64,000 nucleotides of DNA from Octopus vulgaris (lineage: Eukaryota), in assembly GCA_951406725.2 (NCBI GenBank), contig OX597825.1, forward strand, positions 58,590,001 to 58,654,000, given 5' to 3'. How positions within the stretch are numbered: position 1 is the stretch's first letter; each line of letters begins with the position of its first letter. The notes under the pieces are model-generated. The model saw only the letters and a program-made list of their open reading frames with translations, made no database searches and was not told the origin of the DNA. A program made the translations under genes and the position numbers. Shown here piece after piece: positions 14,963 to 55,424 of this stretch.

Positions 14963-15007
14963 GACGAGAAAAACCAAGTTCTAACCACAGCGGTATGGAT
15001 TTATGAG
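14963..15007 (+). CDS. nAChR-like Cys-loop subunit, 45-nt internal exon (DEKNQVLTTAVWIYE, loop D Trp)
   Basis: ttttcAG acceptor and GTaaat donor, phase 0/0. Matches the conserved nAChR DEKNQxLTTxxW motif and the typical 45-nt exon size. Confidence 0.95.
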
Positions 15008-15227
15008 GTAAATCATTTTTGTTTTTTTTGCTACATAAATTCCAATAGGCAATAGTTAGTTTCTTGAAGTGCTAATAATTTTTAATTTACTTTCTATTGC
15101 ATATTCTATGGGTTTTAGTATGTCAATGTAATCATTATATACATACATACATGTATGTGTGTTTGCGTGTGCGTGCGCGCGTGTATATATATATATATAT
15201 ATATATAATCAAATCAAAATCAAAATC

Positions 15228-15728
15228 ACTTCGATGACTGGCATCCGTGCTAGCGGGGTGCAAAGAGCACCAATACAAGGGTGATCGTTGACAGAACGGC
15301 TATTCGTGTATGATCGTTACCAGCGTCGCCTTACTGGCACTTATGCCTGTGCTAGTAGGGTGCCAAGAACACCATCCGAGCGTGATTGTTGCCAGAGCAG
15401 CCAACTGGCTTCTGTACCTGTGGCACGTAAGAGGCACCATTCGAGCGTGATCATTACTAACGTCGCTTCACTGGCAGCTGTGTCGGTAGCACGTGTAAAA
15501 AGATTCGAGCGAGGTCATTGCAGTACCGCCTGACTGACCCCGTGCAGGTGGCACATAAAAAGCACCCACTACACTCTCGGAGTGGCTGGTGTTAGGAAGG
15601 GCATCCAGCTGTAGAAACTCTGCCAGATCAAGACTGGCGCCTGGTGCAGCCATCTGGTTGCCAGCCCTCAGTCAAAACCGTCCAACCCATGCTAGCATGG
15701 AAAGCGGACGTTAAATGATGATGATGAT
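15228..15728 (+). mobile_element. SINE family C, young near-full-length copy
   Basis: Repeated cgagcgtgatcgttaccag units, core ggaagggcatccagctgtagaaac and (GAT)n tail; CpGs retained. Confidence 0.8.
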
Positions 15729-16387
15729 ATATGTGACATGCTTAATTATGATTTTTCATGCAAAACATTAATGTTCAATATAGTATCCTATAGTATGCTT
15801 TGGTTTCAAGTGCAGTTAGAAGTTTTACAAGAATAACAGGAATGCATTATCTTACAAAGTTTAGGTGCACATCATTGCTTCTGGATAATATTTACTTTCA
15901 GTTATGAATATTTATTTTTAATTATAAATGTTTGATTTGATTTTAATAACATTTGATTTTAATGACACTTAATTATAATAGAACAAAGGCCAGAATATTT
16001 TCCATGTTCATATCTGAGAAATGAAGCCTGTGCTTGCTTGGTACAAAGTCAGCCAGACCCATGATCTAAGGTGTTTCAGTTAGGATTATCTTCTTTTTTT
16101 TTCTGACAATGTAATCTTAGTATCTAGGATTACTTTCTACAATCTGCCCTTCCATAGTTTTCTTTAAATTTGTCCGTGTCATAAAGAGGAAATTTTGTCT
16201 TCTGGCTTAAGACTGACTGATGATTACAGAACAACGCCAACACTAATAACAATATTTCAAATTTTGGCACATAGCCAGCATTTGGGGAGAGAGTAGTTGA
16301 TTGCATTGACCCTCCATATATGACTGGTACTGTATTTCATCTACCCTGAATGGATAAAAAAACAAGCAGAAGTAGGGGAACAGAGAT

Positions 16388-16620
16388 AGCGGTGAGCTGG
16401 CAGAAACTTTAGCATGCCGGGTAAAATGCTTAGCAGTATTTCGTCTGCCGCTACGTTCTGAGTTCAAATTCCGCTGAGGTTGACTTTGCCTTTCATCCTT
16501 TTGGGGTCAATAAATTAAGTACCAGTTATGCACTGGGGTCGATGTAATCAACTTAATCCCTTTGTCCTTGTTAGTCCCCTCTATGTTTAGCCCATTGTGG
16601 GCAATAAAGAAATAAGAAAT
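16388..16620 (+). mobile_element. SINE family B (ggcggcgagctggcagaa head; ctttcatcctttcggggtcgataaattaagtaccag core)
   Basis: Near identical to the copies at 26549, 35797, 37980 and 39955; B-box-like gagttcaaattcc. Confidence 0.85.
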
Positions 16621-17119
16621 AGACTTCTTTCTTTCTTTCATTAAGGAGTCAGTTGTGGGCAGGGATTGGCTCCACCAAGTTTAAAATGCCCAGAACATGT
16701 TGTATGTGGCACCCTTTCTGACTCCATCAAGAGTTAACGGACTATCATAGAGAGATAGGATGGAAGATATTGAATGGGCTGATTGTATTGATAAATGATA
16801 ACAAAGTTGTTCTTATTGCTCAGCTGGGTCAGTCTTGGCTGAAGAAACCCATGATCAAAACTTTTCCATATGTGACCACTCTGCCTTTTATTCAGTCATC
16901 TTGTATTTCAGTAACTACGCTATCTAATGTGTCCCCCACCCTCCTTTTGTAAAATGATTAGGTGTGATTTAAGGGGTATTTGGTTGCAACTTTTAGCAGG
17001 CTAAGTTGCAACAGGAATATTTCCCTCATGCCTGGAAAAAGGAAACTGTGGTACCTTTTGCCATATAGACTATACTTGTAGGATTTGTGGATACTGCTTC
17101 CTTACTTATCTACAGAACA

Positions 17120-17492
17120 ATTTGGACGAAATGTTTAATGCTATTTCATCTGTCTTTATGTTCTGAGTTCAAATTCCGCCGAGGTTGACTTTGCCCTTCA
17201 TCCTTTTGGGGTCAATCAGATAAGTACCAGTCACGCACTGGGGTCGATATAATCGACTTAATCCATTTGTCTGTCCTTGTTTGTCCCTTCTGTGTTTAGC
17301 CCCTTGTGGGTAGTAAAGAAATAAGTATTTCATCTGTCTTTATGTTCTGAGTTCAAATTCCACTGAGGTCGACTTTGCCTATCATTCTTTCAGGATTGAT
17401 AAATTAAGTATCAGCTGTGTACTGGGGTCAATCTAATTGACTGGCCCCTTCCCCCAAAATTTCAGGCATTGTGCCTAGAGTACAAAAGAATA
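17120..17492 (+). mobile_element. Head-to-tail family B SINE dimer (tail A then tail B)
   Basis: Two consecutive cores with different 3' tails. Confidence 0.8.
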
Positions 17493-17516
17493 AAACTATT
17501 TTGACTAAAAATAAAC

Positions 17517-17680
17517 GGTGCTATTTTAGTGTGCAGTCTACTGCAGTATTCATAGTCTGTACTATAAAATGACCTGACCTGGGTTAGGGTTAGGAGTAAA
17601 GCTAGGGTTGGGGTTTAGGGTTAGTGTTAGATTGCATACTTAAGTGTAAATAGCCAAGTAGACTACACACTCAAGGCACC
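17517..17680. mobile_element. Short TIR element with internal TTAGGG-like repeats
   Basis: Ends ggtgct...agtgtgcagtctact and agtagactacacactcaaggcacc; centre gggttagggttagg. Confidence 0.5.
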
Positions 17681-17749
17681 AAATAAATTCAATCTTTCTT
17701 CTTTTTCCTTCCTGATTTTATATTTTTCCTCTTTTATTTTCTTTATCAG

Positions 17750-17859
17750 GAATGGATTGACGAAAATCTGAAATGGGAACCTGAAGTATACCAGGGTTTA
17801 AATATGATTGTAGTTCCTTCGGAACTCTTATGGGTACCGGACATATTTATTTTTAACAC
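17750..17859 (+). CDS. nAChR-like subunit, 110-nt exon (EWIDENLKWEPEVYQGLNMIVVPSELLWVPDIFIFN-T, loop A)
   Basis: Long pyrimidine tract plus tcAG acceptor, GTAAGT donor, phase 0/2. WxDxxLxW and WxPDI motifs; typical 110-nt size. Confidence 0.95.
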
Positions 17860-17990
17860 GTAAGTAACACCTCATCATTGTCAAATTTTGTCCATGAAAA
17901 ATTACTCACTTGAGATTGCATATCATGTTGTTGTTTAGTTTTGGATCAGCAATGATGAAGCAAATCTATAACAAAACTATAACAATACCT

Positions 17991-18443
17991 CGGTTGTTTC
18001 CGTGTCAACTTGACAATTCACTTCGGATATCTTCATGACCTCCGTGACAGTGTGCGTGTTCTGTTTTTATGTATTTGTGTATTGTGGAATATAGATATAA
18101 AGAAATTATGCCACCAAAAAGCCTTGCATATATGTTCTTACCTTCTTCATATGTGTATGTAAAATCCGCAAATTTGCAGAGGTCACGAAGATATCCGCAA
18201 ATAATTGTTGTTGACAAACAACCGCAGAAATTGTATTCACCTCAATAGACGTCATTGATTGGTTGAAATTGCCGAAATGCAAGAAATTAAACAACAAATA
18301 GCTTACAAACTACAGAATTTTCTCAAGAAAGACAAGAGAAAAAGATGTTTTATGTAACACATTCTACCAGTATACAAAGTTTAAAAGTGTTTAGTTACAA
18401 AGAAATTATTTTAAAAATCTGCTGGTCAAAGTGAAAAGATCCC
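17991..18443 (+). mobile_element. Partial foldback/MITE element of the GGATC...GATCC family
   Basis: Internal inverted repeat (17991-18051 vs 18178-18224). Right terminus aaatctgctggtcaaagtgaaaagatcc resembles those at 41550-41578 and 43255-43282. Confidence 0.65.
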
Positions 18444-18685
18444 CAGCAGTCTCCGATGCATACCGGCCTCCCCTCTCCATGCCACCAGTGTTATCCAAGG
18501 GAAAGGCAACAGCAGATACAGCTTGGCACTTGTGACGTCGCAACCCATTTCTACAGCTGAGTGAACTGGAGCAACGTGAAATAAAGTGTCTTGCTCAAGA
18601 ACACAACACACAGTCCTGTCCAGGATTCGAACTCACAACCTCACGATCGTAAGCTTGATGCTCTAACCACTGACCCATGCGCCTT
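18443..18685 (-). mobile_element. tRNA-derived SINE family D
   Basis: Minus strand ggcgcatgggtcagtggttagagc...gagttcgaatcc (A and B boxes), then gttcttgagcaagacactttatttcacgttgctccag. Confidence 0.8.
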
Positions 18686-18844
18686 CACACACGCGCACAC
18701 GTATATACACACATATACATACGCATATACTCATGCATACATATGTGTGTGTGTACATATATATAGGGTTTTAACTGGCCCTTTTTTAGCATGTAAGGAG
18801 TCTTGTCAATGGTTTCTTTTGTGTATAAAAATATTTTATACATT

Positions 18845-18891
<47 letters not shown>

Positions 18892-19506
18892 ATATACATG
18901 CACACACACATATATACATATACACTACACTCATATATATATATATATACACACACACACGCATTTATACGTAAACAGGTAAACAGTGCATCTTACATGT
19001 TTCTTCACAGTTTCCATCGACCCAAAGACGATATAGTGGAAGATATTTGCTCTAGGTGCTGCGCATTGTGACCGAACGTGGAACCACGTGATAGCAAAGC
19101 TACTTTCTTAATCACAAAAAATAGCAGATGATGGAGTGCTAGCAGTGCTTACTACCTTCATTGATATACGAGAATCTTGCCTGAAACTGAAGGGAATCTA
19201 AAGATTATTTAAAACTGCTCTGCTATTTCTTTACTAATTTCAATTATTGATTCAAATGGCCGTGCAGAGAAAATGGAATTGCTTTTGGCCGGGGGCGGCT
19301 CTGTGGAATTTGAGATGATAGAATGACAAAAAGAGAATTTCTTAGAATATATTTTACATAGCACATTCGGGAAATCTCTCTCTTTCGATTTATATAGACA
19401 ATTTACACACGCACTCACTCACATATGATGTGGCTGTGTGTGTATATTTATTATATATAAATGTATAAATAACGTACACAGTTGTAAACATATACATATG
19501 TGGATG

Positions 19507-19548
<42 letters not shown>

Positions 19549-20619
19549 ACACACATATATATATATAGGGATAATACGTAGTGTTGCAAGGTTTATATAA
19601 TTACTTCACACACACAATGAATTTATCAACAATAAAGCGTTTTTTTTTTCCTTGGATTCTCTTTGTCTTGTTTAGAAACGCGGTAGGGAAAAAAAGCACT
19701 ACTGTGATAAAGATGAAAGAACGAGAAAGAGAGTATTAGAAACAGAGGTAGATTAAATAGATAAAAAGATAAGGTCGGGGCGGGGGACAAGAGTAGGAGT
19801 GGGAGAGTGAAAACGTCAGATGATAGGCAATCAAGGGAGCAGAAAGTGAAATATAAGGGAGAGATGAAAGAAAATGTGAAGGGGAAGAAATTCTCTTAAT
19901 CTTTTAATTTAATTCTTCTCTCTTCATCTCCTTTCTCTCTCTCTCCCTTTCCTTGTTGTCTTCCTCCTCTCTCCCTCACGTCTCTGTCTCTCATAGATTT
20001 TCTGGGTGCTTATTCCTTTTTCTTGTTGCATCTATCTACTGTAGAACTAAATCAACTTCCTGTTTGCAGTATTAGAAAAAGTGAAAGCCCGGCCACATAA
20101 CAAAGATTAAATTATGCTCGTGCGTGTGTGTATAAAATAAGAAGATCTGTTGGTGGTAATAGAAGTAGCCACTGTCGAATGGAGATTCTTTGTCAATATT
20201 TGCCTATGTTGTTTGAAAGTTATGCAAGGACAAATTGAAGCAGTTTCCCCAAATTCTCTTATCTTATTTGTTTTAGTCATTGAACTGTGGCCATGCTGGA
20301 GTAGCACCTTAAAAGGGATTTTAGTCGAGCAAATCGACCTCTGTACTTATATTATAGTCTGATACTTATTCTATCGGTCTCATTTGCCAAACCTCTAAGT
20401 TACGAGAATGTAAACAAACTTACACCGGTTGTCAAGCGGCAGAAGTGGAGTATACACAAAGACACAAAGGTTTAGTTTTTAGTCACCAAATTCACTCTCA
20501 CAGCATTAGCCAACCCCTGGCTGTAGTATAAGACACTTGCCCAGAATACTGCGCAGTGGGATTGAACTTGAAACCACATAGATCCAACCACAGCCATGTC
20601 TACACCTATGTGCATAGGA

Positions 20620-21500
20620 AAAGATTGGGAAAGATTTCTCTAGTTAAAGATTGGAAGAGTTTGATGAAGATGAAAGCTTATTCTGGAGTGCACTGCTTGA
20701 GGGTGATGGTAAGAACGCAGAAGGAATCAGCCTGTTGGGTGTAAAGATCGGAAGAAATTCTCATGGTTATGACTATATATACGTAGTGGAGAGATTGGTG
20801 GAATGGAGGACAAAAGTTTGTGAGGAATTTGACTGAACGGTTGTGTGGAGCTGAGAGCAAAACTGGCACCAAATGTCAAGGCTTTCTTCATTGGAAGTGC
20901 TGTTCGTTAAGGAGTGATGTATAGAAAAATTATACAAAGTTGGTTGAACCCTTTTTGGCAAGGGACCAGAAGGCTCTGACTGCATGCAGTTAAATAAAAA
21001 AAAAAACAGGAGATATTTCGGGGTGTGTGATGAGCAAGATGGTGTTTGCTTTTATGATATCAGACTTGCAGGCGATGCGATGGCAGGCAAAAAGCTTCCA
21101 TTTAGAAATAGTGGTGCTACTACAGGCACTAGCATAGCTAGAGTGTGTGCTGCCCCCTGACCCCACAAAAAACATATATTGCCTACAGCAGACCCAAAAA
21201 ATGGTGCCCCTACCACCGCCACCTAGCTACGCTAGTGACTACAGGTCGTGTTCTTTCCTTGTACTGCTGCATCATAGTAGCTTGTAAGATATTTGTACGT
21301 ACCTAGGGTTTGGGGACTTGCTTACTTTTAGCTGAGTAGTAACAGCAGGTGACGTATAGATGAAAAAACTAAGTTACTGTCAGAAGAGAGAAATAGAAAC
21401 AGCAGGTAATCTTAGAGGAATGAGGAAGAGAGAAACAAAAATGGCAAGGCTTCTGTTGCTGAAATCTAAACAAAAGAGGTGGATTCATGAGGTGAATAGA
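20620..21500 (-). mobile_element. Highly degraded LINE-like fragment
   Basis: Broken minus-strand frames loosely resembling the region between endonuclease and RT of CR1/Jockey-type LINEs; no diagnostic catalytic motif seen. Confidence 0.3.
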
Positions 21501-24060
21501 AATTCTACGTAAGTGACACCATCTTTTTGAACGAAGCTATAATATAGTGTAACCTGGACAGCAGAGATATATTAGAGATAAAGAGAGATTTATGTGTTAG
21601 AGATATTGTTTAAGTGGAAGGTTGTTGGAAGGTTCCAGATCAGACCGAAGTTCATGGCCGTTTGTGTAAAGGAGAGGAAATTTTACAGTTGATTGATTGC
21701 GTATCATATAGCAGTTATATAGACGTTTGTAGTTATGTGTAAGACATACATTACACGTTTGTATCTGGTAGTGTGGTATAGGTGTCATATATACATTACA
21801 TATGTGGGCGGGTGTAAACGTATGTGGTTATGTATATGTAGGTGTAATACAGATAGTATTACATGTTCGTGTCTGAGTGTATTTCTGCATATACGATAGT
21901 TGCAGAATGTGTGCGTGCGTGCATCCTCATGTAATTGAATATGTATTTTGTGGGTTGCATGTTTTAATCTATGCGTATGTATATGTGTGTGTATTTAAGC
22001 ATAAGTGTGTCTATGCCTACGTTTGTACCTGTCTGCCCTGTATACACGTGTGTTTGTGTGTAGATTTACATATATCTTTGCCTTATGTTTGATGTTTATA
22101 AGAAAAAATGACATAACTTTTAGGTATATCTTCATGAATTGCCTAGGTAAATATGATTGTATGCTTATATAGATACAAGCGCTATACACGTGAAAGATGA
22201 AGTTTGTATGTGATAATGACATACATTATGGAAACCCATTGCAGAAATAACACTGTGTAAAAAAAAAATATGATTTTCTTTGTATTTGGTTAGTAAATGT
22301 TACTTACTATTTGCGTCAATCTAGAAATCAAAGGAAATGACTACGATTACCTTCAAATTTTGCTTTTGTAACCTGTACAGCAATGTTTCGAAACTGACGT
22401 ATTTTCTATAACATAGATCAGATTCAGCGCTGAGTTACTGAAGTAGAAATATCGTTATAGTTATAGCAAATACCCAGCTCAATACCACAGATTTGCTTGT
22501 CAGTTGCTTGACTTTAACCACTTGAGCATGTCCCTTAGTGACTGACAATTTGTGCAGCTCTGATCACGAGCAGGAATAGTGGGGGGGGGGGGACATCATA
22601 GTTATGGGTTGAGGGGGGGATTCTTTAGGATTTGAATAAATGTAACAAAAGCGAAGTTTGATGGTAATATTAGCCATTTTTCATACTTTCTAGTGGTAAG
22701 CAAATAGAAAATAACAGTTGCTACCCAAGGACAAAAATCTTGTCACACGATGTAATTTTCCCTCTTATTGTAAGTGGGTTGTATTCGTTTTTGACTTTCT
22801 GTTTGGACATGAACTGCAATGGTACGGCTTCTGTCGTTAATCAGTTCTGAATTCACGCTTAATTTTAGCAGCCATTATTCTTCTGAAAAAGATTAGAACA
22901 GTTCTAAAACATTTTAAACTATCACTTCCTTTTCATTCATCAACATTTTCCAACGCGCTTTTGTTACTATCCAAGATTTTTCATTTTTTATATTCATACA
23001 CGTATTATCAGGGTAATTCAGTTCTGGGTACTAAATTACCCTGGCAATTGTTTGCATATTTATTCTTACTATATTCATGTAAATTCGAACGCAAATATGT
23101 TAGGCGTTGTTGTCTGTGTCTCAGGAGAACAACGTTTTATGATGACGTTGTGTTTGTACGAAGAAGAGTCTGACTGCGATTTTTGATAAACAAATTCTAT
23201 TCTTTCCGTGCACAAAAACAAAAGTTTTAAACGTTATTGTTCTTGGAATTGTTGTAACAGCAGATAAAGTGTGGTTAGTTGCTTGCCGTACTACTAACTC
23301 CTCTTTTACGTCCTCTAACTTTTTATTGCCTTTGCGTTGTCGGCTGCTGTCCGCCATCTCCTACAGTGTATATCAATGGTTTCTCTGCGGCATCCTTTTT
23401 TCTAGAAGTCACAGTGTGTCGAATTTATGCTGATTGATAGGCTCAGAAGGAAATGCGCCAAATGACGAAATCGTCGCTGGAACCTATTCCATGCAAAGCT
23501 GTGATTGCTCAGCATTTGTTGATCACATGGGCAATAATCTAGCGAATCGTGACACTGGGTGATTGCTGAATATTCCCGCTATAGTTTCTTAAACACTTGG
23601 CTCATTGATACAAAGAATTCTGAGACACAGGTGTTTCGACATGCTGTGCATTGTTGGCCAAAAGTATCCGGACTTTTGAGCATAAACAAACCGGTGGCTT
23701 TGTTTATAATTTCAAGAACAAACTGATCACTGCCAATATTTGCCAAGTAATGAAAGAAAATCGTTATTTGTACAGCAAGATCTGAAACGATGAAAACTTA
23801 AAAAAAAACAAAACTGTATGGATGCATCTACAGCGCCACCCCTACTAGTCACTTTGTCCCCAATATCCTTAGAAAAAATTTCAATAATATATCTCTAATG
23901 ATCTTCAACATTGATAAGAGGGTTTTCTCCACACACACACTTCCCCCACTCGCTCTTTAACTCTTTAACGTACTAGTAGAACATTATATAGATATATAAA
24001 CTCGCGCGTGCAAACGATAATTAGTTGTATAAATTTTGTTTTGTGTATTATGTATATATA

Positions 24061-24445
24061 TCTTTATATATAAAAGTCAAGTTGTGTGTCTGTCTTCTAC
24101 GATTTAGATTCCTAACTACTCCCACATTTTGCGGTGCAGTTTAACCAAAACTGGGTATCTTATAGTCGTGATTCATATCGAGCCCTTCTGGGTATTAGCG
24201 CGCGTCTACGATTTAAAAAAAAATTTACCATCATTTTTTCCATTTTAATGCATTTTTTTCGCTATTATATAAGGGAAGTAACTCTCTAAAAATGTCTACG
24301 ATGAGTCAACGATTTAAAAAATTTACCATCACTTTTTTCCCATTTTTAATGCATTTTTTTTGCTATCTTTTGGCTATAACTCTCTAAAAATGCTTATATA
24401 GTTATTTCCCTTACAAACCCGAGCAACGCCGGGTGATACTGCTAG
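24061..24445 (+). mobile_element. Non-autonomous Helitron
   Basis: 5' TC start after an A, 3' hairpin cccgagcaacgccggg followed by CTAG and then T (A/T insertion site); internal ~90-bp tandem duplication. Confidence 0.85.
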
Positions 24446-24611
24446 TATATAATACATCTGTTTGTTGTTTACACAACGAGTTGAAATTTGGACAACTACA
24501 AGTATACTATGCATGCATATGGGACGGTTTGTTAACGTCCATGTACGCATTTAATGTAGCTTGCAAGTTTTAATACTTTAGGTAGTAAATAATTATATTT
24601 CTTATATATAC

Positions 24612-24940
24612 TCTTTTACTCTTTTTACTTGTTTCAGTCATGTAACTGTGGCCATGCTGGAGCACCGCCTTTGGTCGAGCAAATCGACCCCAGGACTTAT
24701 TCTTTGGAAGCCTAGAACTTATTCTGTCGGTCTCTTTTGCCGAACTGCTAGGTTACAGGGACAAACACAGACACATAAACACACACACATATATATATAC
24801 GACGGGATTCTTTCAGTTTCCGTCTGCCAAATCCACTCCCAAGGCTTTGGTAGAAGACACTTGCCCAATGTGCCACGCAGTGGGACTGAACCCGGAACCA
24901 TGTGGTTCGTAAGCAAGCTACTTACCACACAACCACTCCT
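24612..24940 (-). mobile_element. SINE family A
   Basis: Reverse complement of the family A consensus with internal deletions. Confidence 0.8.
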
Positions 24941-25274
24941 ATATATATATATATTTGCTAAAAGCTTACTCATAAATTGATAAAAGTAATACGAAGGGGA
25001 AAAGCGCACGCACGCCCTCACACACTCGCGCGCGCGCACACACACAAAAACTATACGTATACAGTTATGTATTTACTGTTAAAGAATGGACAAATAAGGC
25101 ATCATCTCATACCTTTTTGTGGAGTTTAGGTGTAGCTTCGGACGGATGCCCCCTATTTTTATGTATCTCAATTACTCATGTAACGAAGAATTTGGTTATC
25201 GAACAGGTCTCCAGAATGCATTATGTTTGTATATAAAGACTCCACTGTATATAAATACATATGTATGTATGTAT

Positions 25275-25532: not shown

Positions 25533-25566
<34 letters not shown>

Positions 25567-25719
25567 ATCAGGAACTAGTATCAGTGTATCAGCAAAGCAC
25601 TTATTAAACAAGAAAAAATTACATGAAAAAAAAAACTACCGCAAAAAAGTAAATAAAATAATATCAGAAGAAAGCTGTCCTCCATCTCTAACCTCCACTC
25701 CTAGCCCTCTCTCTGTTTC

Positions 25720-25777
<58 letters not shown>

Positions 25778-25896: not shown

Positions 25897-25931
<35 letters not shown>

Positions 25932-27230: not shown

Positions 27231-27970
27231 CGGATCTTTACCTTTTGACCGGCAGATTTAAAAAATAATTTTTTGTTATTAAACGCTTTCAAACTTCGTA
27301 TACTGGTAGAATGTGTCATATAAAACATCTTTCACTCTTAGCGTTTTTGAGAAAACTTTATATTTACGAAGTTATTTCGTGTTAAAGTTGTCGTATTTCG
27401 GTAATTTCAACCAATCAGTGACGTTTATTCAGCTGAATAACATTACTGCCGTTGTTTATCAACAACAACTATCGGCGGTGTATATTTCGTTTGTCACTGT
27501 TATTTATGACATCGTTCGTGTGTTTGTACTGGTTTTAGCTTTAAGGTTAGGGTTAGGGTTTTAGGGTTAGGATTAGTGTTACGGTTTTAGGGTTAGGGTT
27601 AAGATTTTAGGGTTAGGGTTGGGGTTTTAAGGCTAGGGTTGGGGTTTTAGGGTTAGAGTTACGGAAAAAATGGAAAATGAAGAACTTGGAGGGGTAGGGT
27701 AGGGGGCAAAAAGTATTTCTGAAAATAGTAGCTAAAAAACAGGAAAAAAAAAAACTAAAAGCAGTAAGAAATGCACGAACGATTATGGTGGTACCATGAA
27801 ATAAACATGCTTCAGATACATTCGTTTATTCATACAAACATAACTGAGATGAAATATGTCATGAATAAACAGTGACAAACGAAATATACACCGCCGGAAG
27901 TTCTTGTTGAGAAACAACAGCAGTAATTTCATTCAGCTGAATACACGTCATTGATTGGTTGAAATTGCAC
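27231..27970. mobile_element. Foldback element with long inverted arms and central telomere-like (TTAGGG) array
   Basis: Left terminus ggatctttaccttttgaccggcag. Arm 27400-27512 is inverted at 27856-27968. Central tagggttagggtt repeats at 27540-27660. Confidence 0.7.
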
Positions 27971-27974
27971 ATGA

Positions 27975-34006: not shown

Positions 34007-35168
34007 CGAGGGACGTTCAATAAGTAATGCCCCTGACCCACTTGCATTTGTTTGATCTAGCTGAAATGGTGCATGTGCAAAAATTTATATCTCTATAGAT
34101 TAAGTGGCAAATTACAGCTCTGAACAAATTGTGGTTTCTGATTTACAAGTGTTTGAACTGAGTCAAGTGTGAAATGGAGCCTGTTGAGTGTCGAGCAGTG
34201 ATTCGGTTTTTGTATTTGAAAGGACGCACACCACAGAAGACTTTTGATGAAATGAAAGTAACTTATGGTTTTGATGCCCCATCATATGACCTTGTAAAAC
34301 GCTGGAATCGTGAATACAAACATGGTCGGAACTCTGTGGAAACAGCTCCCAAATCTGGTAGCTCCCCCTTCTGCCATTGATGAGGCATCTGTCCTCATCA
34401 AAAGACAAATAGCCCATGAGGTCAAGATTAGTACCGGGTCTGTGGAAACTATCATTCATGACCATTTGCATATGCAAAAGGTGTCTGCCAGATGGATTCC
34501 CAGGTTGCTCACACCTTTCCAGAAGCAAGAACGCGTCGAGTGCTCGAGGATGAATTTGGAGATGTGCAAAGAAGATGAGTCAAATTTTTTCAAAAGACTG
34601 ATTACACGGGATGAAACCTGGGTCCATCACTATGATCCAGAGACCAAAGCCCAGTCAATGCAGTGGAAGCACCGTGACTCACCTCCTCCAAAGAAGGCAA
34701 GGGTGCAGCCCTCCGCTAGCAAGGTCATGCTCACAGTCTTCTGGGACCAGGACGGAGTAGTAATGACAGATTTCCTGGCAAAGGGTACCACAATTACAGG
34801 AGCCTATTATGTTTCACTTTCGAGGAAATTAAGAGAAGCTATCAAAATCAAGAGGCGGGGCAAGATCAGCAAAGGCATCCTCCTCTTGCAGGACAACGCT
34901 CCGGTCCACAACTCAGTTGTCGCCAGATCAGAAGCACAGGCGTGCGGCTATGAAATCCTCTCCTGACCTTACACCCTCTGATTTTCACGTCTTTCCAGCC
35001 ATGAAGTTGTTTTTGAAAGGAAAGCGTTTCCCAGATGATGCAGCCTTGATTTCTGAAGTCACGTCGTGGTTGGAGGACCAAGCTGGGGTCTTCTACAAAA
35101 ACCGGTCTCCAGAGCTGCATCAAACGATGGGAGAAATGCGTAACTCTGGGTGGTTCCTATGTAGAAAA

Positions 35169-37979: not shown

Positions 37980-38395
37980 AGGAAGCTGGCAGAAACATTA
38001 GCACACCGGACGAAATGCTTAGCGGTATTTCGTCTGTCGCTACGTTCTGAGTTCAAATTCCGCCGAGGTCGACTTTGCCTTTCATCCTTTCGGGGTCGAT
38101 AAATTAAGTACCAGTTAGGCACTGGGGTCGATGTAATTGACTTAATCCGTTTGTCTGTCCTTGTTTGTCCCCTCTGTGTTTAGCCCCTTGTGGATAGTAT
38201 AGAAATAGGTATTTCATATGCCGCTACGTTCTGAGTTCAAATTCCGCCGAAGTCGACTTTGCCTTTCATCCTTTCGGAGTCGATTAAATAAGTACCAGTT
38301 ACGCACTGGGGTCGATATAAACGACTTAATCCGTTTGTCTGTCCTTGTTTGTCCCCTCTGTGTGTAGCCCCTTGTGGGCAGTAAAGAAATAAGTA
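37980..38395 (+). mobile_element. Family B SINE dimer
   Basis: Two tandem cores; the second starts at gtatttcatatgccgctacg. Confidence 0.85.
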
Positions 38396-44066: not shown

Positions 44067-46204
44067 GAAATTTTGATATATCACCGTCTTCATTTCCAGT
44101 TTCTATAGCAATTTACTTTCATTTTTTAAAGACCCCTAATTTACTTTCCCTATTTTATGACGGTAAACTAAACATTAATCGTATGTATGTGGTGTGTGTG
44201 TGTCTAAACCATGATGGAATGGAAGCATGTGTCAACGTGGATGGTTACTCTCTGAACACCGGCTGCAAGAGGCGCCCATCGTTGTAAAATTAGTGATACT
44301 TGAAGATGACAGTATCAATCAATGATTTTGCTCGAAATTGAGTTGCGGATCTATTCCTGAGTTGCATCTATTATCATCATTGCGATCACAGAATTATATT
44401 CCTGGCAAAGTATTTCCACAATTCACGAAATTCCATGCAAAACCTGCTGGTCAGACTCGAGGTGTCAAAAGGTAGGAGCGAACATGAAACCATATTGCTG
44501 CGAAATGAACGGTTTAACCAACCACAGGGACAGCTTAACAATATAACCGTTTACTGTGCTTATATTATTGAATTTCCTTGCAGAAAATGCTCTCCAATAA
44601 GTGGTTATTTTATTGTTCTCCATTTCCACTAATCGTTAATTTTGCTCTCAATTATTCAATTTTCTCAACTAAAACAACCATGTCTAACTCCCTTGCTCTT
44701 AATCTCTTTAGTTTTACATCCTTATATATATTCACGTTAGCATGAAAAATGCTTCCATGCTTTCGTAGTATAATAATAGCAAAATGGGTTGTTCATGACA
44801 GCTTCCTGCGATTGTCGATATTAAATATTATTTCGAACAAAAGGGAATATTCCTCTTCTAATTAATTAAAAAAAAATCATTATTATCTATACAGAACTCA
44901 TTATTCCATATAAACTTTTTTTTTCTTTTTGGTCTGGGTCCTGTTTAATAAATATTCCTATTCCGATTTTTGCTAATCATTGAGCAGACAGACGACATCG
45001 CTTATTTTTCATGTGTACTTAGAGAAAAATCGATTAAATTCATTAATGCTAAAACTCCTAGAAATGTCAATGGTTTAATCTTTCAAATAATTCGATATAA
45101 TAGATAGGTTTTGAGAGCTGTAGTTTGGTCAGATCGATCTGTAGTCTCTTCAACAGTTATTAAACTACATCGCCGATATTGCGCTGTAACCCTAACAAAT
45201 CTACCCGACTCATTAATGGCTCGGTTTACTTAGCCATAAATGAGAAACAATAAACGAAAAGTGGTGCTGTTTATCGATGTAAACAGGAGTATACTGTATC
45301 TTGACGACTGCTTCTTTATCTTGCAACGTTGAGATTAAAATCTTTCACCGTAGGAACACAACAATATTTCTGATTTTATCGGAAGCAGATTAATTGAAAT
45401 CGTTCTGTATGGAGGATACGATAGATATCCTTAACTTTCTCTCTCTCGTTATGTATATATGAGTGCGTGTGTGTGTGTATTACACACACACAATCATTTC
45501 GTTCGGATGTTGACCCCCAAGTTTACTCTTTTAGGCTCATGGACGGGTCGAGGCGACCAGACTTTGAATCGGACGTTGACTTTTTACAGATTATATTTCC
45601 GAAAATCTATAAATATCCGTAGAGTTTACATAATTATCAAACAAGTAGAGTGAAATGAGCAACTTTCTTTAAATTTCCCTTTAAAATTCCACCTAGATAG
45701 TTAACCACCACTTTCCCTCCTTTCTGGCATCACAGCCGCCTCGTTGAAATTTTTGTTTTATCCCTCCAATTCCTTTCTCTCCACCTGTATACATATAAAC
45801 AATATAACTAACACCCTCTTGACCTGCTAGAGTCAGTGGCACTCGCTAATTTCAATTACATCAAATCAAAGAAACTGATATGTCCCGTATCTTCATTATT
45901 TTATTTATATGTGTATATATATATATATATTTATGCATCTATGTTGTTTTATATGTGTCTACGTGTGTATTCAGGTCTTTCTGTATGTATTCATATACTT
46001 CTATACGTATGGACGGATATATATCTTCATGTATGTATTTATGCGTATTTGTCTATTATATACGTGCGAGGTGAGTGTCTGTGGATCATCATGCTTCAGA
46101 ATACATTTACCTATTTATTTATGAACGTGTGTACATATGTGTATGTATATCTGAGAGTGTCAGTGTGTATTAATCAAAGTGTACGGTATTATACATTTAT
46201 TATG

Positions 46205-46750
46205 GCCGATCTTAATCGGTTTCGTACTAGGGGTTCAATGGGATGTTAGGTTAAAGCCTGATTATGTAACCCAGTGCTCTTCAGAGTTGACATTTATGGA
46301 AGAAAATATGGCAGCCACTATCTGTCGTTGAAAAGACACATCCGGTTTGTAGTTGCTGTGAAAAAAGACAACGAAACGTACTGAACAAGGGTTGAGTTAA
46401 GAGTTATGTCCCTTTGCACCAAACAGCTTCTGGTGTGTTGCAACGTTACAGGAGTTTTCTGGAAATGTATGTATGATTTAGGGGTTGATATTCTTCTAAG
46501 GTTGGAATGTGTGCAGAGGTACTATATGTGTAGCATTTTCTTTAGGGGAGTGAGGTTGGTGGGCAGATGCCCAAAGGTCACATAAGTGCCTGTATGTTTG
46601 ATTGTGTCTTTTGTTTATATTTTGGTTAAATTCTTTGACGTATTTGTGTAGGTATGGAATATGTGTAGGGATACACCCATTACCTACTTTTTGTATCTTT
46701 GATCATATTGTTTACATAGACATATTTGTTTACAAAACATTCTAACTTAC
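46205..46750 (-). mobile_element. Penelope-like pLTR remnant ending in a degenerate hammerhead (46207-46290)
   Basis: Minus strand CTGAAGA-gcactggg...cctagtac-GAAA-ccgatta. The upstream extent is inferred, with only weak coding similarity. Confidence 0.45.
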
Positions 46751-46827
46751 AGTGATGGCTCTGAATCCTATAGAGTATTTATAGAGCTAACCTTAAAAAT
46801 TATATATATGTGTGTGTGTGTGTGTGT

Positions 46828-47074
46828 ACTTTATAAAGTGAACAATTGTTTCTATTAACATATAACATATATAGATATAGAAAATATCATTAAAATTAAT
46901 ATTTCTGAAAATAAATGTTAACACAATGTTTTCAAGGCGATCCGAAATTAGTGAAATTCAAGGATCACCTTGGAAATGTTCTGTTCACATTTATTTTCAG
47001 AAATATCAATTTCAATGATATTTTCTATTTCTAAATATGTTAATACAATAGAAACAATTGTCAGCTTTATAAGG
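46828..47074. repeat. Long imperfect palindrome (~115-bp arms)
   Basis: ctttataaagtgaacaattgtttctatt...caaggcgatcc versus ggatcaccttg...aatagaaacaattgtcagctttataag. Confidence 0.8.
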
Positions 47075-49828
47075 TGAATTTTACAATAACAGTGTGATTT
47101 TATGTATATGTATGTTTGTTGTCAAATTGCTTGAAATTCTTCTAAATGATATTCAGATCTACTTATCATACTTGAAGAATTACCTTTGTTGAGTATTCTA
47201 CTTACATTTACTAGTGTCTGATTGTTGGATACAGGTAACAAAATTTGTTTAAAACTGAGTGCTTTATTGATATCTGCCTGGATGTTTTAATCCCATTTTT
47301 GTTTCTAAAGATATCATCATCATCATCATCATTACTGTTTAACATCCATTTTCCATGTTGGCATGGGTTGGGTGGTTTGACTGAAAACTGGCAAGCTGGA
47401 GAGCTGCACCAGATTCCAATTTGATTTTGCTTGGTTTCTATGGCTGGAATGCCCTTCCTAATGCCAACCACTCCAATAGTGTAGAGGGTGCTTTTTACAT
47501 CCCACTAAGTCTTAATAAAACAAAAAGACATACAATGATGGTCACAGATGGAACACCCTAAATCATGACCCTGTTCAATCAGGGATGACCTGGACAAACA
47601 ACAACAATCACAGCATCATAGGTATAGTAATATTTGAGTTTTATTACTCATGTGACTCATGTTCTGATTCTTTAATAATACACATTGAGTTTAATAATAA
47701 TTGGATTATGGTCAAAGATTATGCCAGATGCTGGGTGTGTTTTTACTGATCTCAAGCAGTTTTTAAATCTTTGGTGACCACGATATAATCAATTTGGTTT
47801 CTGAATACATTAATAGGACTCTTTTATAATTTTATAGCTGGTTGCTGGAATGAGGCATTTGCAATTATTAAGATATGTCTTTCATAAAATCCCAATACTC
47901 ATTCACCTCTTTCATTCTTTTGATTTTTCTCTTTGCCTACCTTTGCATTTAGGTCTCCCACTACACATGTTATGTCTCCAGACATGACATACTTTAATCA
48001 TTTCTCTACTTCCTTGTGAAATTTTTCAAAGTCTTCATCATGATCTTGGGTTGGTGCATATATTTGAAGTACTTTGATGATAAATGGTAAGAACACAAGT
48101 TATAGAATGACTATCACTATAAGAAAAAATAAATGGCAAAAGCTCAAAGAAGTAGACCTAGCACCAAACTGGTTTGATAACCAGTTTGTTGATGAGTACC
48201 AAAGAGGTTTCTGTAGACTGACAGGTAATAACTATTAGCTCAGTATTGCAAACTAACAAAGGAATTTTTGATTTTAGAGTATTACCACTGTTTAGAACAA
48301 CGAGCTATTTCCACTTTGTGATATCTAACTGGACAACTAAGATTTTTGAGAGTTAAGCATTTTGCTCATAGATACAAAGCATTTTTGTTAACATGTTATG
48401 CACTGCTGATCACTTATATGGTTGTCTTGTAGCCTATTCACCCAGCCATTTGTAATCCCCTGCTACATTTATAACATTTGATATAAAGCAGATGAAAATA
48501 AGTAATATTTAAAGACAATCTCACTGGCCAGTTCAAAATATCTTTGTCCCATTCAAAAGGAGCTTGTAATGCTGGTTTATTGTAATATTTTGGATCACAT
48601 ACATATAATGTGTGTGTGTGTAAATCTATCTACATATATCAATACATATAATATATATACTTATATATATAGATAGCTAGATAGATAGATATGTGTGTGT
48701 GTGTGTGTGTGTGTACTTAAAGGCTTCTTATTTGTGTGTAAAGTCTACCAGTAGGTATGTAAGATTGCTAAGGGAACAAGATTGGATGTCAACTTTGCAC
48801 TATATTGGACTGACCAAAGCACTATATGGTCAGTACATATGTGATTGTATTGGCGCAACTTTCCTCTCTGGTGAACAAGTGAATAATTTCATCTTTTTTG
48901 TCACCACTTTCCAGACCCTGCATGATTTACTGCTCCATAGCTCACATCTCTCCCCAAATCCTACATACTCCAGATTTTCATCTTTGCTCCTGGCCCTGTT
49001 GCAATAACCTGTCCATTTTTCCCCAACTCCACCTACTATTACAAGTCCCAACCACTGTACAGTATGCATCTCTGACATCTTCATTTGCACCTCCAATATC
49101 GTCATTCAGTGCTTAAAAGGATCTCTCAACAGGGCCTTGTATACTGTTGCTCCTTGGCAGACTCAGCACCTACTAGGCATCCATTTCTGGAATCAAACCC
49201 CTATTTCTGCTCAGTCAACCACTCTAACACCTTACAGTATTTATCTTGGTCTTAAACAACGGACTACAAATTCTAGACTTTGGAAAGAATAGTGATTCAT
49301 CTTTTCTCCCCAAACTCACATCCCCTTCAGCCTCAACTCACCACTCATACACTAACTACACACTTGCACACATACATACACACATGCATACATATATTTA
49401 TAAATATGATAATACACATGTTCTCTCAATGTTGAACGCAAATTTTTGCAAAGTCCAGAACCATTCTAAGGGAAATAACAAGTAAGAAATCCCTAAAATG
49501 TTACTTTTTTTTGCCAGTGTTTTCATCTTGAAGTCTCATGTAGTCTTGTGCAACTTTGTATATTCTCATTCAAGATGGAGGCAATTACCAGCACTTTGAA
49601 GTGAATCACATGGATATTGCAGAAATTTTTTCTACTTGTTTTCACTGACAGCATTGTTAATCTACAAATAGCGAATATTTAGCCACAAAGTGTGACGTTG
49701 AGCACTCATTCACACTGTTTAATACTGTATGTGTATATGTGAGTATGCACATAAAAAAGTATACACACATATATTGCATTATGTACTCAATAGAAACCAA
49801 CACATATGTATACATGCACACATGCATA

Positions 49829-49877
<49 letters not shown>

Positions 49878-49939
49878 CTCTACCACTGGTATTTGAGTAC
49901 TCTTTTTTCCACCTTGTTTCACATTTATGTGTTTACTCC

Positions 49940-49975
<36 letters not shown>

Positions 49976-50197
49976 CATACACACACACATATATACGTAT
50001 ATGTACATTTATGCATTTATATATTTATTTATAGATATTTATGCATGCATGCACACATACATGTATGTATGATTTTTTTTTATTTATCTAATTTCTTTTT
50101 TTCATTCTTCCTCCACCACAATTATCTTCAAATTTATTACATCTGGTCAATATTTCAAATTCCATTCCATTTCTGTTCATCTCTACTCCTACATATT

Positions 50198-50234
<37 letters not shown>

Positions 50235-52744
50235 GCTTATGTTTCTGTAAAACATTGTCCTTCTATTATTATTTTACTTTTTAGCTACTTTAGTACTGCT
50301 TTATACGTTTCATTTTACAGTTTTATTAAGTGGCTTCATTTTTATTCTTTCTTATCTATTATTATCAGTATTGAATTTACTTTATAATTTCACAGGGCCG
50401 TTGGCTACAGATCGTTTATTACACCCTGTACAACTTTTAACAGCAACTCATAAACCTGTAGAGGCATTGATAATTGTTCTGTTCTCATGCAACTCCAGTT
50501 CACATATTTTCACAACCACACCTCAACTTTCCACCTATCCCTTTCTTAGTTTTACAATAACCCATTTTCTTTTTTGCTTTTCAATTTTATTTTTTTTACC
50601 AATATATGTTATTTTTTATTTAATATTTCTTTATTATTGATTATCAAATTATTATTTTTTTAACAATTGACACTATAAGCTTGTATTCAAATGATATTGG
50701 TGATTTATCTATAAAGCTTTAAATCGAAACAGTTTATGTTTGTCTTATTTTTCTTTGCATATTTGTTGCTTTTATATATATTTTATATTTGTGTCTGCCT
50801 ACTCTTTTGTTTCTTTTACAATGTGTGTACATAGAAGCCAGTTTTCTTTTGTTTTGTGTTATTTTTTGTGATTTTTAATGTTTGTCCTTTCTAAAGTCAA
50901 TAATGTTATTTCTCATTTTTAACATTTAATATCATAAATACTTCTACATATGCATATGTGTATGCATAGGTGCATTTATACAGACATGCATTTATATATA
51001 TATTTATACACACAAACACACATAAAGTCTCATAAAGACTTACATACACATTTATGCAGGTATATGTATGTATATATGCACATACACTTACACATGTGTA
51101 ATCATGCATGTTTATTTACATCAATATATGTGTCTGCATGCACACACACACACTTCACATATGAAGCTAAGTATATATACTTACATGTGTGTGTGTGTGT
51201 GTATCTGAAAAATTCTTTCTATTAACAACTTTTCTAAACTTCTTGAATTCTATAAATGAGCTTGTTTCGAAATGTTGTCACCAAAATGAGTTCATTCTGT
51301 GAAACTTCATTGTAGCTACACTATATCTAAATTTACTGTAATACTTCAAGCGAAATTTCCTTGAAATTATTCAATCATTTTTGGATAATTCTAGAATAAT
51401 TGTAAATATTCTATAAATATCTAGATTTTTTATTGCAAAGTTACATTATTGTGTCAAATAGTTGCTAATAAATAAGTGTTATTGAAATGTATTTGCATGA
51501 AAATTGCATATTTTTGATTCACTATCTCCACTTTTTCTCATAATTTGCAAAAGAACTAGAATATATTTTCTATGAAATAGAGACTATATCATACTTCCTA
51601 GACTGTCATTATATATAGATGGAATTTATAAAAAAACAAAAGATGAAGATAGGTGTGTAAACAACAAAACAGGTGTATTAGTTTAACGTTCGGGAAGGTG
51701 AGAAAGTCTTTTACATTTCAATATATATATATGCATATGTATGTATAAAAGCTGGACAAACAATTATAGATGACAGGAACTCATTTCTTTAGGAAATGAC
51801 CTATACATACTCTTATTAAATGATATTTTTTTCATCTTTACAGCTGTTTCAAAGACTCAACAACTTCTTGATATTTTAATACATATGAAAGCAGGTCTTA
51901 TAATGCATAATATCAAAACAGGTGTACAGGCAATAATTATAAATAACATCGTCTCACATGAAGTATGGATATATTAATATCTTTAACCTGGAACAGCCAA
52001 ATATTTTCATTGAAAGGATGAGTGGCAAATGTAGTTGTAGCATTTTCTTGATAATACACAATAATAAATAACTACTAATGAAGATGTGAATATGGGGGAA
52101 AGGCAGAAAAAGAACATGAAATTTAGAGCAAATATATATTATTGTTATTTAATGTCACTTTTCCATGCTTGAATGGGTTAGATGGAATTTGTTGAGGCAA
52201 CTTTTCTGGCTGGATACTCTTCCTATCATCAACCCTCACCTGTTTCCTAGCTAGGTGATATTTTCCCATGGCTAGACATGTTTTTCAAGACAGACTGGAA
52301 ATTAACAACCTTGCTTGTATACAGCCTTCACATGATGTCTTGACAAGGGTACACACAAATGCATTTACACAAACACACAAACAACACACACATGACAGGC
52401 TTCTTTCAACTTTCATCTAACAAATCCTCTCAGAAATCTTTGGTTTGTCCATAGCTATAGAGGAAGAGGTGCTAGGCAGTGGAACTGAACCCAAGAACAC
52501 TTGGCTGCAAATCAATCTTCCCAACCACTCCTGTGCCTATACACACACACAGATATACATACATATACATGTAAAAGCCTCCAACACACACTGTAAAGTG
52601 ATTGGTGTTAGGAAGGGCATCCAACTGTAAAAACCAAGCCGAATCAGATTGGAACCTGGTGCAGCTTCCCAGCTTGCCAGCTCTGATCAAAACATCCAAC
52701 CCATGCCAGTATAGAAAATGGATGTTGAAGGATGATGATGATGA

Positions 52745-52794
<50 letters not shown>

Positions 52795-53809
52795 ATATAT
52801 ATTCCCAGTTCACTTTTCGTTCCCCTTCTTTATCTTATAGTGACTTTTATCTATCTTCTTTCCTTCCTTATTTAGTCCTCTTTTACTCTGTTTACATATA
52901 AACAGCTCACTTTCACTACACTTACTAACTTTAATGCATTTACATCAAACTCTCTCATTTCCTCACTTCTTTCCATCCTTTTTTTCACCCCTCTGCCTCA
53001 TAAATGTAAACTTTCCTCATCATCACAGCATTGTATAAATTTATTTTGGTCTGCAAAACCTTTGAGCACTATCACTTTCTATAGATGTAAAAAAAAAAAA
53101 AAAGGTTATCTTATCAGCAAAACTTTAAAATAATGTGACTGTTATATATTTTTTACTATGTATTCCACTTCTAATTTTTTCTCTTATACTACTCTACTTA
53201 GCATCTGTTTAACCCTCTTGATATTTATTTACTCATTCCATTCTTCTTTCTTGAAAATTTCTCCCTGTTTTCTCCTCCACATTTTATATATACCACCTTT
53301 TGTATTGCAGTTTTGTTATAAACACTTACACTTATATTTCTAACCTTAATGCCCTGTCAGCCATACCATTTGTATTATTTCAGTTTTATGTTATAAGAAT
53401 CGTAGATATGTACTGGGATGAATTCATCTTAACAACAATGTGGTTCTTGTAATGTCATTATTTTAAAAATCATGCACAGCTTGGCCAAGTTTCATGTTGA
53501 GTATTTGGTTATTGTTGTGTGACTGTCTATTTTTATTATATGCACCTCAGAATAAATCTTATGGTTTATTGTCTATGTTTATGATGCTCTTATCTCTGAC
53601 ATTTCCTAGGGTTTGGCTATTCATTTATATTGGCCTTATCTATTATAAAGATCTATCAACACATACCATCATCACTTCATTCTGGAGATGAGACTTTAAA
53701 AGTCTAGAAACATTGGTAACTGTTTTAGGAAATTTTGCTGTTTCAAACAACCTACAAGGAGTCCATGTGAAAATATGTATGGAACTTGAGAGAGAAGATA
53801 AAACATACT

Positions 53810-54215
53810 GTTACTCTTTACTCTTTTACTTGTTTCAATCATTTGACTGCAGCCATGCTGGAGCACTGCCTTTTAGTCGAGCAAATCGACCCCAGGACTT
53901 AATCTTTGGAAGCCTAGTACTTATTGTATCGATCACTTTTGACAAACTGCTAAATTACGGGGATGTAAACACACCACCAGCGGTTGTCAAGTGACATTGG
54001 GGGGACAAACACAGACACACAAACATATACACAGACACACACACACATATATACGATGGGCTTCTTTAAATTTCCATCTACCAAATCCACTCACAAAGCT
54101 TTGGTTGACCCGAGGCTATAGTAGAAGACACTTGCCCAAGATGCCACACAGTGGGAATGAACCCAGAACAATGAGGTTGGTAAGCAAGCTACTTACCACA
54201 CAGCCACTCCTGTGC
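53810..54215 (-). mobile_element. SINE family A (CpG-decayed)
   Basis: Full-length reverse complement with many CG-to-TG/CA changes relative to the 32470 copy. Confidence 0.85.
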
Positions 54216-54876
54216 CTACATACATACATACGCATGTATGTATGTATATATACATACATAAACAAATCACAAAATCGTAGTTTTGATTCTTGAGCAAAAT
54301 GCTTAATCTCACATTGCTCTGTAATCACTTCAATGTTTGACATGTGGCACTTGTGCACCTGTACAGGCAATGTCAATTTGATGGAGAGAATGAGCTTATG
54401 TGAACACAAACATTTGATCACCATAACAAAGCATCAGTGTGGTTGTCCAGCAAGAAATTGTGAAACCCTCTTCCATCATCTAACAATGGGGCAATAAGCC
54501 TGCACCTTTCTTTAATAGTGTGACATATTAGGAGAACACTTGATTCCTTAGATTCCCTTTTCTTTTTATATGAAGCTGTTTCCAATTACCATTTAGTGAT
54601 TGAGACAATCCTACAGCAGTGAAGATAATTTAAATAAACCAAGAATTTATGTTGTATGGTGTTTGATATACCTGCATTTGTCTTTGTTTTACATGATGTG
54701 TATATGTGCCTCTGTGTGTTTGTATGTTTGTGTGTGCTTGTGTGTGTGTGAATTAAATCAATGTCTGAAACAGTACAAAATAAGTCTTGCTTATGACTTT
54801 GTAATATTTATAATATTGCAATGTATATTTTCAAATGCTTATAGTACCACCGTATTATTCCATTTGTGTTTTGCAG

Positions 54877-55424
54877 GGCGTCAGAAAACAATGCTGGTTA
54901 TGTGAATGTGACTGGAAGTAAGATTATGATCAAGCCGTCAGGAAGAGTACGTTGGATGGTGCCACTAATGATAAAATCTTCATGCTCTGTAGATGTTACC
55001 TATTTTCCGTACGATAGTCAACAATGTACAGTGCGCTTCGGGTCATGGGTTTATGATGGAGAGCAACTAAACCTCTTCAATGAACCCAGTAAGCCGGATC
55101 TATCAAAATACGTTGAGAACAGTGAATTTGTACTGCTGAACGTCAGTCTTTCTCGCGTTGCAGCCGACAGTGATTGTTGTCCTGGAGACGGATGGCACCC
55201 CATGATTCATTTCACAATTGAGATCGACCGGAAGTCTTTGTACTATGATTATATTGTAATCGCACCAACTCTGATGTTGTGTGTGATGACTTTAGCTTCA
55301 TTCCTGCTTCCCTGTCATTGTGGAGAAAAAATTGCCATAGGACTTACTGTTTTTCTTACGCTTTATGTACTCGAATTACTTGTCGCTGAGAACACACCTG
55401 ATTCTAATGCTACACCTATCCTAG
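54877..55424 (+). CDS. nAChR alpha-like subunit, 548-nt exon: loop E, Cys-loop, loop B, loop C (CC), M1, M2, M2-M3 linker
   Basis: ttttgcAG acceptor (phase 2, completes the ACG Thr codon from the previous exon) and GTAAGT donor (phase 1). Motifs CSVDVTYFPYDSQQC, FGSWVY, CC and GEKIAIGLTVFLTL...VAENTP...PILG. Confidence 0.97.

Follow-up and report, generated by a model that had tools for sequence, protein, structure and literature searches.

What role is left for an alpha-type nicotinic acetylcholine receptor (nAChR) subunit that has kept its vicinal cysteines while the tyrosines of its acetylcholine (ACh)-binding aromatic box have been replaced? This question is raised by a gene of Octopus vulgaris that lies partly in a stretch of 64,000 nucleotides (hereafter the window), corresponding to positions 58590001-58654000 of chromosome C12 in the 2.8-Gb genome (G000). 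An earlier note on the window had described the gene as encoding a divergent cation channel that is gated by another ligand or acts as a modulatory subunit. Both proved to be real options. Our data demonstrate that the gene is intact and that the subunit is an old, intron-rich, single-copy lophotrochozoan orthologue, not an octopus novelty. The comparative pattern, as read from sequences, leans towards an accessory role rather than a new ligand. We give an even chance to the reading that the protein is an alpha5-like accessory subunit (complementary-face or fifth-position) of an ACh-gated heteromeric cation channel, probably together with an ACR-26-like alpha subunit.

The gene and its ligand pocket

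The window carries exons 3-5 of a six-exon gene that spans ~267 kb (Table 1). These exons have AG/GT ends and share a single reading frame, and their 234-residue product is an exact substring of O. sinensis XP_029643592.1 (annotated as 'alpha-10-like') and of O. vulgaris CAI9731213.1. Every one of the six exons is open and agrees with XP_029643592.1, perfectly so in exons 2-6, which rules out a pseudogene or an artefact. The gene is single-copy in the octopus genome, the next-best paralogue being 41-46% identical. Exon 5 was present in 14 of 24 sequencing-run rows, from runs that were guessed, not recorded, as RNA. Exon 4, including the TTT codon discussed below, was covered mostly or fully by contigs of 854-1772 nt in all four runs (likewise guessed as RNA), with no other letters. 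From each of these contigs 94-113 letters map to the window, as expected of a spliced transcript. The joints shown in run contigs were mostly repeats, and the exon 3-4 joint was not among them. We conclude that the subunit gene is intact.

Tyr93, Tyr190, Tyr198 and Asp200 are important for ACh binding. In HMMER alignments to human alpha7 and alpha4, the octopus subunit has Phe (TTT at 17852), Ser (AGT at 55169), His (CAC at 55196) and Met (ATG at 55202) at these four positions, NSEF aligns with NGEW/SGEW of the human chains, and loop C contains a two-residue insertion after Cys-Cys. The substitutions listed in the earlier note are thus borne out by codons and alignments alike, and so is its statement that Cys-Cys, Trp149 (loop B) and Trp55 (loop D) are retained. 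Trp149 alone remains of the aromatic box Tyr93/Trp149/Tyr190/Tyr198, and the subunit is therefore not a canonical ACh-binding alpha. Formally it is an nAChR alpha by its vicinal Cys-Cys in loop C, and a Cys-loop receptor by its PF02931 and PF02932 domains. Rescue of the tyrosines by adenosine-to-inosine (A-to-I) RNA editing is excluded because the codons are TTT, AGT and CAC, as had been argued before. A Trp that had been pointed out directly before His198 is indeed present (TGG at 55193); it occurs in two of 36 mollusc rows, both cephalopod, and so is not a conserved replacement aromatic.

A predicted monomer consisted of a beta-sandwich and four C-terminal membrane helices, and its best fold matches were human alpha4 and alpha7. 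With a mean predicted local distance difference test (pLDDT) score of 66 and a predicted template modelling (pTM) score of 0.43, the model is too rough for pocket geometry; structure prediction, suggested earlier as a check of the pocket, returned the expected fold.

Phylogenetic position and known relatives

Orthologues were sought by three word-based searches and one profile-library search, whose listings are the best rows of longer lists. Among the matches listed, the molluscan orthologues come from cephalopods, bivalves and gastropods, and the remainder from two nemerteans, three polychaetes and trematodes; none of the listed matches from arthropods, nematodes or vertebrates fell inside the clade. 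In a FastTree analysis of 287 rows (292 entered, five removed as too short), 48 rows formed one branch with support 100, 36 of which constitute the mollusc branch; several clade rows were assigned by tree position. The clade was also recovered in an 86-row IQ-TREE run and, at 100/100, in a 47-row mixture-model run, where it nests with ACR-26-like subunits in a 98/98 group. For the label ACR-26-like we rely on two sequences: Ascaris ACR-26, which clusters with P0086, and Aplysia AGM37744 (P0090), counted as ACR-26-like by Courtot et al. (PMC4666645). The clade is distinct from the ACR-26 orthologues themselves, which are recognised by YxCC and by membership in the ACR-26 clade; the octopus ACR-26-like gene is L002. 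A grouping with alpha7-like rows was rejected [approximately unbiased (AU) test, p 0.0027; 47 rows]. We infer that the clade originated by an old tandem duplication within the ACR-26-like group. The cephalopod innovation implied by the earlier note is not upheld, and neither is its analogy with chemotactile receptors, since the orthologue is old, single-copy and spread across lophotrochozoans.

The nearest sister of the clade, with weak support (87/61), is a group containing the octopus paralogue L003 (C17:45190999-45191508). The loop C of L003 reads HSCCPDPHPD, with His at both 190 and 198; L003 is another orphan with an altered aromatic box.

Chemotactile receptors (CRs; CRT1, PDB 8EIS) resemble the subunit in being nicotinic-derived, in lacking the ACh aromatic box and in belonging to the same wider ACR-26-like group. 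These likenesses could indicate a sensory receptor of the chemotactile type, or the lineage from which the CRs directly arose, and a sister relation of the two was not rejected by the AU tests (p 0.415 and 0.477), although it is absent from the mixture-model tree. In the octopus genome, however, the CR cluster consists of single-exon tandem genes without Cys-Cys on C15 (56.9-57.4 Mb; L027, L030, L048 and L054-L059), of which L027 matches CRT1 at E 2e-102, whereas the subunit is encoded by a single gene of six exons, with orthologues in four phyla. The CRs form a separate 100/100 clade. A profile of eight CR loci scored the subunit clade lowest of 10 groups, with means of 140 bits (32 mollusc rows) and 133 bits (nine other rows) compared with 181 bits for 53 ACR-26-like rows, and in the mixture-model tree the CRs group with ACR-26 proper (83/96) on a very long branch. 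We therefore regard a CR identity or parentage of the subunit as very improbable; that it might be distinct from the described CRs had been anticipated correctly. The CR profile scored ACR-26-like proteins highest, hinting at an ACR-26-like parent of the CR cluster.

The dopamine-gated cation channels DopC share with the subunit an alpha9/10-like annotation, Cys-Cys, the cephalopod Asp-Gly after the loop B Trp and the status of not being a standard ACh receptor. According to the accessible parts of two preprints (10.1101/2025.04.02.646353; 10.1101/2025.10.31.685654), DopC has retained both YSCC and the second Tyr, and is marked by Ala/Ser two residues before the loop B Trp, by Leu/Phe-Ser in loop E and by WxD in loop D. 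None of these marks is found in the subunit, and identity with DopC1 or DopC2 is excluded by the motifs and by the AU test (p 0.0056; 47 rows, the DopC-like ones being identified from motifs rather than accessions). The octopus locus L008 (C1:209997249-209997752) bears the published loop B and loop E marks and is probably a DopC gene, a label taken from motifs alone; the octopus genome yielded no second DopC-like exon. Instead of the Pro-Ala-Lys (PAK) motif of AChRB anion channels before M2, the subunit has Gly-Glu-Lys (GEK). A grouping with PAK-bearing, motif-labelled AChRB-like rows was not found in the tree, nor was it rejected by the AU test (p 0.107; 47 rows). The comparison with molluscan nAChRs, CRs and amine-gated clades that had been proposed earlier thus places the clade within the ACR-26-like group and rejects a DopC-like grouping. 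A screen of 41 O. vulgaris channels with 18 ligands has been described by Courtney et al. (10.1101/2025.04.02.646353, accessible part).

A family fitting the clade has been delimited before. De Gieter et al. (2023; PMC10338036), in the sections accessible, describe family 41A ('Alpo3-like') from all the lophotrochozoan genomes that they sampled and report loss of the loop C Cys pair from polychaetes alone; their tree for 41A includes an Octopus sinensis sequence, and the closest homologue of Alpo3 is reported at 65% identity. Alpo3 itself was described by Wijckmans et al. (2016; PMC4801368, partial text), who excluded it from functional tests as truncated. Our clade is likewise pan-lophotrochozoan, its Cys-Cys is absent from all three polychaete rows and present in 34 of 36 mollusc rows, and an identity of 61.5% (275 residues) between its members from Paralvinella and Capitella is near the value for Alpo3. 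The clade is probably the published 'Alpo3-like/41A' family, by a circumstantial match to its description rather than to the Alpo3 sequence. In the accessible descriptions of 41A there is no mention of the lost tyrosines, of His198, of flatworm members lacking Cys-Cys or of an ACR-26-like linkage.

Molluscs commonly possess alpha subunits that have Cys-Cys but no conserved principal site. Jiao et al. (2019; PMC6896357, accessible part) found the principal site kept in 13 and lacking in 20 of 33 oyster alpha subunits, and the oyster orthologue of our subunit is among the 33 they aligned. MolluscaGenes (PMC13174522), in the part available, contains unnamed clades with binding-site substitutions. 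A literature search with six clade-member accessions matched no papers; octopus, oyster or Aplysia accessions of the clade had no match in the supplements searched (including PMC9712504 and four of PMC10338036); and no functional study of the subunit was found in the literature within reach of the search, which left most subscription papers outside. The subunit is thus already annotated, probably delimited as a family and apparently uncharacterised. The Aplysia orthologue was probably first cloned by White et al. in 2014.

Proposed role of the subunit

Beyond the sequence, the tree and the sharing of contigs, we infer the following steps. A partner alpha, probably ACR-26-like, would bind ACh through its own loops A-C. 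The octopus subunit would supply Trp55 and loops D-F, or merely structure in the fifth place, and would tune assembly, kinetics and permeation in the manner of vertebrate alpha5/beta3 and nematode ACR-27. Vertebrate alpha5 also retains Cys-Cys, lacks Tyr93 and Tyr190 and is an accessory subunit. Alpha5 and beta3 are not orthologous to the clade, the beta3-like row P0137 falling in another clade, so that the likeness would be convergent. The nematode case is closer by descent. ACR-26 of parasitic nematodes requires a related non-alpha partner, ACR-27, which lacks YxCC and for which no homologue outside nematodes was found (Courtot et al. 2015; PMC4666645, accessible text). Because our clade nests with the ACR-26-like group, this dependence argues for a partner role here as well. 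The octopus subunit differs in belonging to a separate, long-stem clade and in the Cys-Cys retained in molluscs, and it is set beside ACR-27, which is reported to be nematode-specific, by description.

One argument for an accessory role is that each lineage has changed the principal face in its own way. Among the 36 mollusc rows of the clade, position 93 is Phe in 31 and Tyr in two (three unscored), and position 190 is Ser in 20, Glu in eight, Gly in two, Ala in two and Asn, Pro or Asp in one each, hence aromatic in none of 35 scored rows. Outside molluscs, Cys-Cys is present in both nemerteans (Lineus retains Tyr198 as well) and absent from all seven flatworm-branch rows, as it is from the polychaetes; the trematode members retain Tyr93. 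Since residues differ by phylum in this way, the ancestor of the clade was probably a near-normal alpha subunit whose face changed independently in several phyla. The loop D Trp55, which belongs to the complementary face, is widely retained (33 of 36 mollusc rows, three unscored, and also polychaete and Lineus rows), as would suit an accessory subunit.

The pore points in the same direction. The -1' filter site is Glu in 25 mollusc rows, Trp in seven and Asp in three (one unscored), and is Lys, Arg, Gln, Asp or Glu in 15 rows outside molluscs; the seven Trp rows are of the bivalve branch (P0023, P0025, P0027, P0028, P0029, P0032 and P0203). Position 17' is Arg in 14 gastropod rows. Both the -1' Trp and the 17' Arg are unusual for a pore-lining helix, in which 10' Thr and 13' Val were invariant in 35 of 35 scored rows. 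A Trp or Lys at -1' would be more easily accommodated in a minority subunit than five times over in a homomer. ACR-26-like rows, many of which have Phe at 198, retain GEK. The claim that the subunit forms a cation channel has GEK as its sole basis; the motif is present in the octopus and is not fixed in the clade.

The subunit gene and an ACR-26-like gene share a scaffold in 10 of 11 species for which both were listed, the exception being Mizuhopecten. Sharing was read from equal scaffold sizes, not from coordinates, and genera with records from different species were not counted. This linkage is in keeping with a joint channel. The shared scaffolds are short in Physella (0.28 Mb) and in Plakobranchus, Bulinus, Aplysia and Lymnaea (2.1-3.5 Mb), the Aplysia pair including AGM37744, and long (25-87 Mb) in Tubulanus, Saccostrea echinata, Argonauta, Pecten and Mercenaria. 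In the octopus, L002 (C12:84242234-84242719) lies 25.6 Mb from the subunit gene on the same chromosome. A DopC-like Bulinus gene, taken as the one control, was on a different contig.

Several observations weigh against an accessory role alongside an ACR-26-like partner. The five short-scaffold linkages all come from heterobranch gastropods and are not independent; as C12 also carries many further nAChR genes, the linkage favours a tandem origin over co-assembly. Expression in oyster (PMC6896357, file 7) shows no specific pairing. Expression of the orthologue OYG10021702 is highest in male gonad (16.6), pediveliger (15.9) and gill (9.8). The ACR-26-like gene OYG10020157, which we assigned by means of the file 4 alignment, likewise peaks in male gonad (4.8) and pediveliger (3.8), but reaches 0.08 in gill. 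The two correlate at rho 0.58 over 38 stages and 0.39 over eight organs; other nAChRs correlate with the orthologue about equally or better, two of the four others reaching 0.56 and 0.59 over stages and three of them 0.74-0.79 over organs. Among the five nAChRs compared we thus found no specific co-expression beyond a common peak in male gonad and pediveliger, and exclusive pairing with the ACR-26-like gene is disfavoured because the correlation is no higher than for other nAChRs. The binding face gives further cause for doubt. Cys-Cys, Trp149 (35 of 36 rows) and the alpha-type Gly two residues before it are retained in molluscs, and position 198 is His in 34 and Arg in one of the 36 rows, across bivalves, gastropods and cephalopods. 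Their retention indicates selection on loop C in molluscs. Tyr190, Cys-Cys and Tyr198 are all present in the member from the nemertean Tubulanus, and not every clade member therefore has a dead principal face. The trematode members, for their part, lack Trp55.

The fixed features of the molluscan loop C may have another meaning. The motif CCPGxGxH, together with Phe93 and Trp149, could form a new principal face for a non-cholinergic ligand (an amine, a small metabolite, or protons/Zn2+ via His) in a homomer or heteromer, a reading to which we give appreciable weight, well short of even. The constancy of His198 and Cys-Cys speaks for it, as does the expression in oyster gill without the ACR-26-like gene. 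Paralogue L003 also has His at 198. Mean column conservation over 33 mollusc rows is higher in loops A (0.87) and B (0.91) than in the whole extracellular domain (0.68); loops A and B are, however, conserved in non-binding subunits too. Loop C varies among phyla, so that no single new pocket is conserved clade-wide, and the -1' and 17' variation is hard to reconcile with a single conserved pore of a homomer. Related nicotinic-like clades such as DopC are documented to have switched ligands (10.1101/2025.04.02.646353, accessible part), but DopC changed its ligand and yet kept the aromatic box (10.1101/2025.10.31.685654, accessible part). In a more specific form, which we consider somewhat unlikely, molluscs would have rebuilt an ACR-26-derived loop C into the fixed CCPGxGxH, creating a new principal face, common to cephalopods, gastropods and bivalves, that gates a fast cation channel by a non-cholinergic signal, the ACh box having been lost independently of the CRs although both belong to the ACR-26-like group.

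The principal face of the subunit might also still bind ACh or choline weakly, with low affinity and at an interface of an unusual kind. Trp149, the preceding Gly and Cys-Cys would allow for this, Tubulanus retains both loop C tyrosines, and the Phe at 198 in many ACR-26-like rows indicates that the site tolerates change. All four of Tyr93, Tyr190, Tyr198 and Asp200 are replaced in the octopus, however, and no scored mollusc row has an aromatic residue at 190; we consider this improbable.

Features of the window and implications

The positions of the exons and of a partial second copy of the exon 5 end are given in Table 1.

Table 1. Exons of the subunit gene and an associated partial exon copy. 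Positions are those of the window unless preceded by C12.
Feature	Position	Strand	Description
Exon 1	C12:58416132		Outside the window
Exon 2	near C12:58540941		Outside the window
Exon 3	14963..15007	+	45 nt, residues 91-105; loop D, Trp55 retained
Exon 4	17750..17859	+	110 nt, residues 106-142; loop A; Tyr93 site is Phe, TTT at 17852
Exon 5	54877..55424	+	548 nt, residues 142-325; loop E, Cys-loop, loop B (Gly-Ser-Trp149), NSEF, loop C, M1, M2 with GEK, M2-M3 linker
Partial second copy of exon 5 end and donor site	55606..55709	+	95% over 106 nt
Exon 6	from C12:58683061		Outside the window

The partial copy has its own GT donor and is preceded by an A/T-rich stretch; it may have arisen by a small tandem duplication or through an error of assembly. 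O. sinensis isoform X2 differs from X1 by Glu313Lys at the M2 20' site, within the part that corresponds to the duplicated exon end, and this difference may reflect such a duplication in that species too. Intron 4 contains open frames at 34162-34963 that resemble a transposase of mariner type, and similar short transposase-like pieces lie near 3170-3451, 11452-11756 and 59688-59788. A short interspersed repeat of very high abundance has copies at 16390-16620, 17150-17490 and 38024-38395, the last comprising two head-to-tail units of 184 bp, and degenerate TTAGGG-like interstitial repeats at 17580-17630 and 27547-27664.

Divergent alpha subunits are a known class and the gene is annotated, so that the subunit should surprise a specialist moderately. 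Lophotrochozoans possess many orphan nicotinic-like subunits, many of which give no current when expressed alone. If the octopus subunit is a partner of a molluscan ACR-26-like subunit, two genes would be de-orphanised together and an alpha5-like solution would have arisen by convergence. If it has a ligand of its own, this would add a new fast signal to mollusc physiology, as was the case with DopC.

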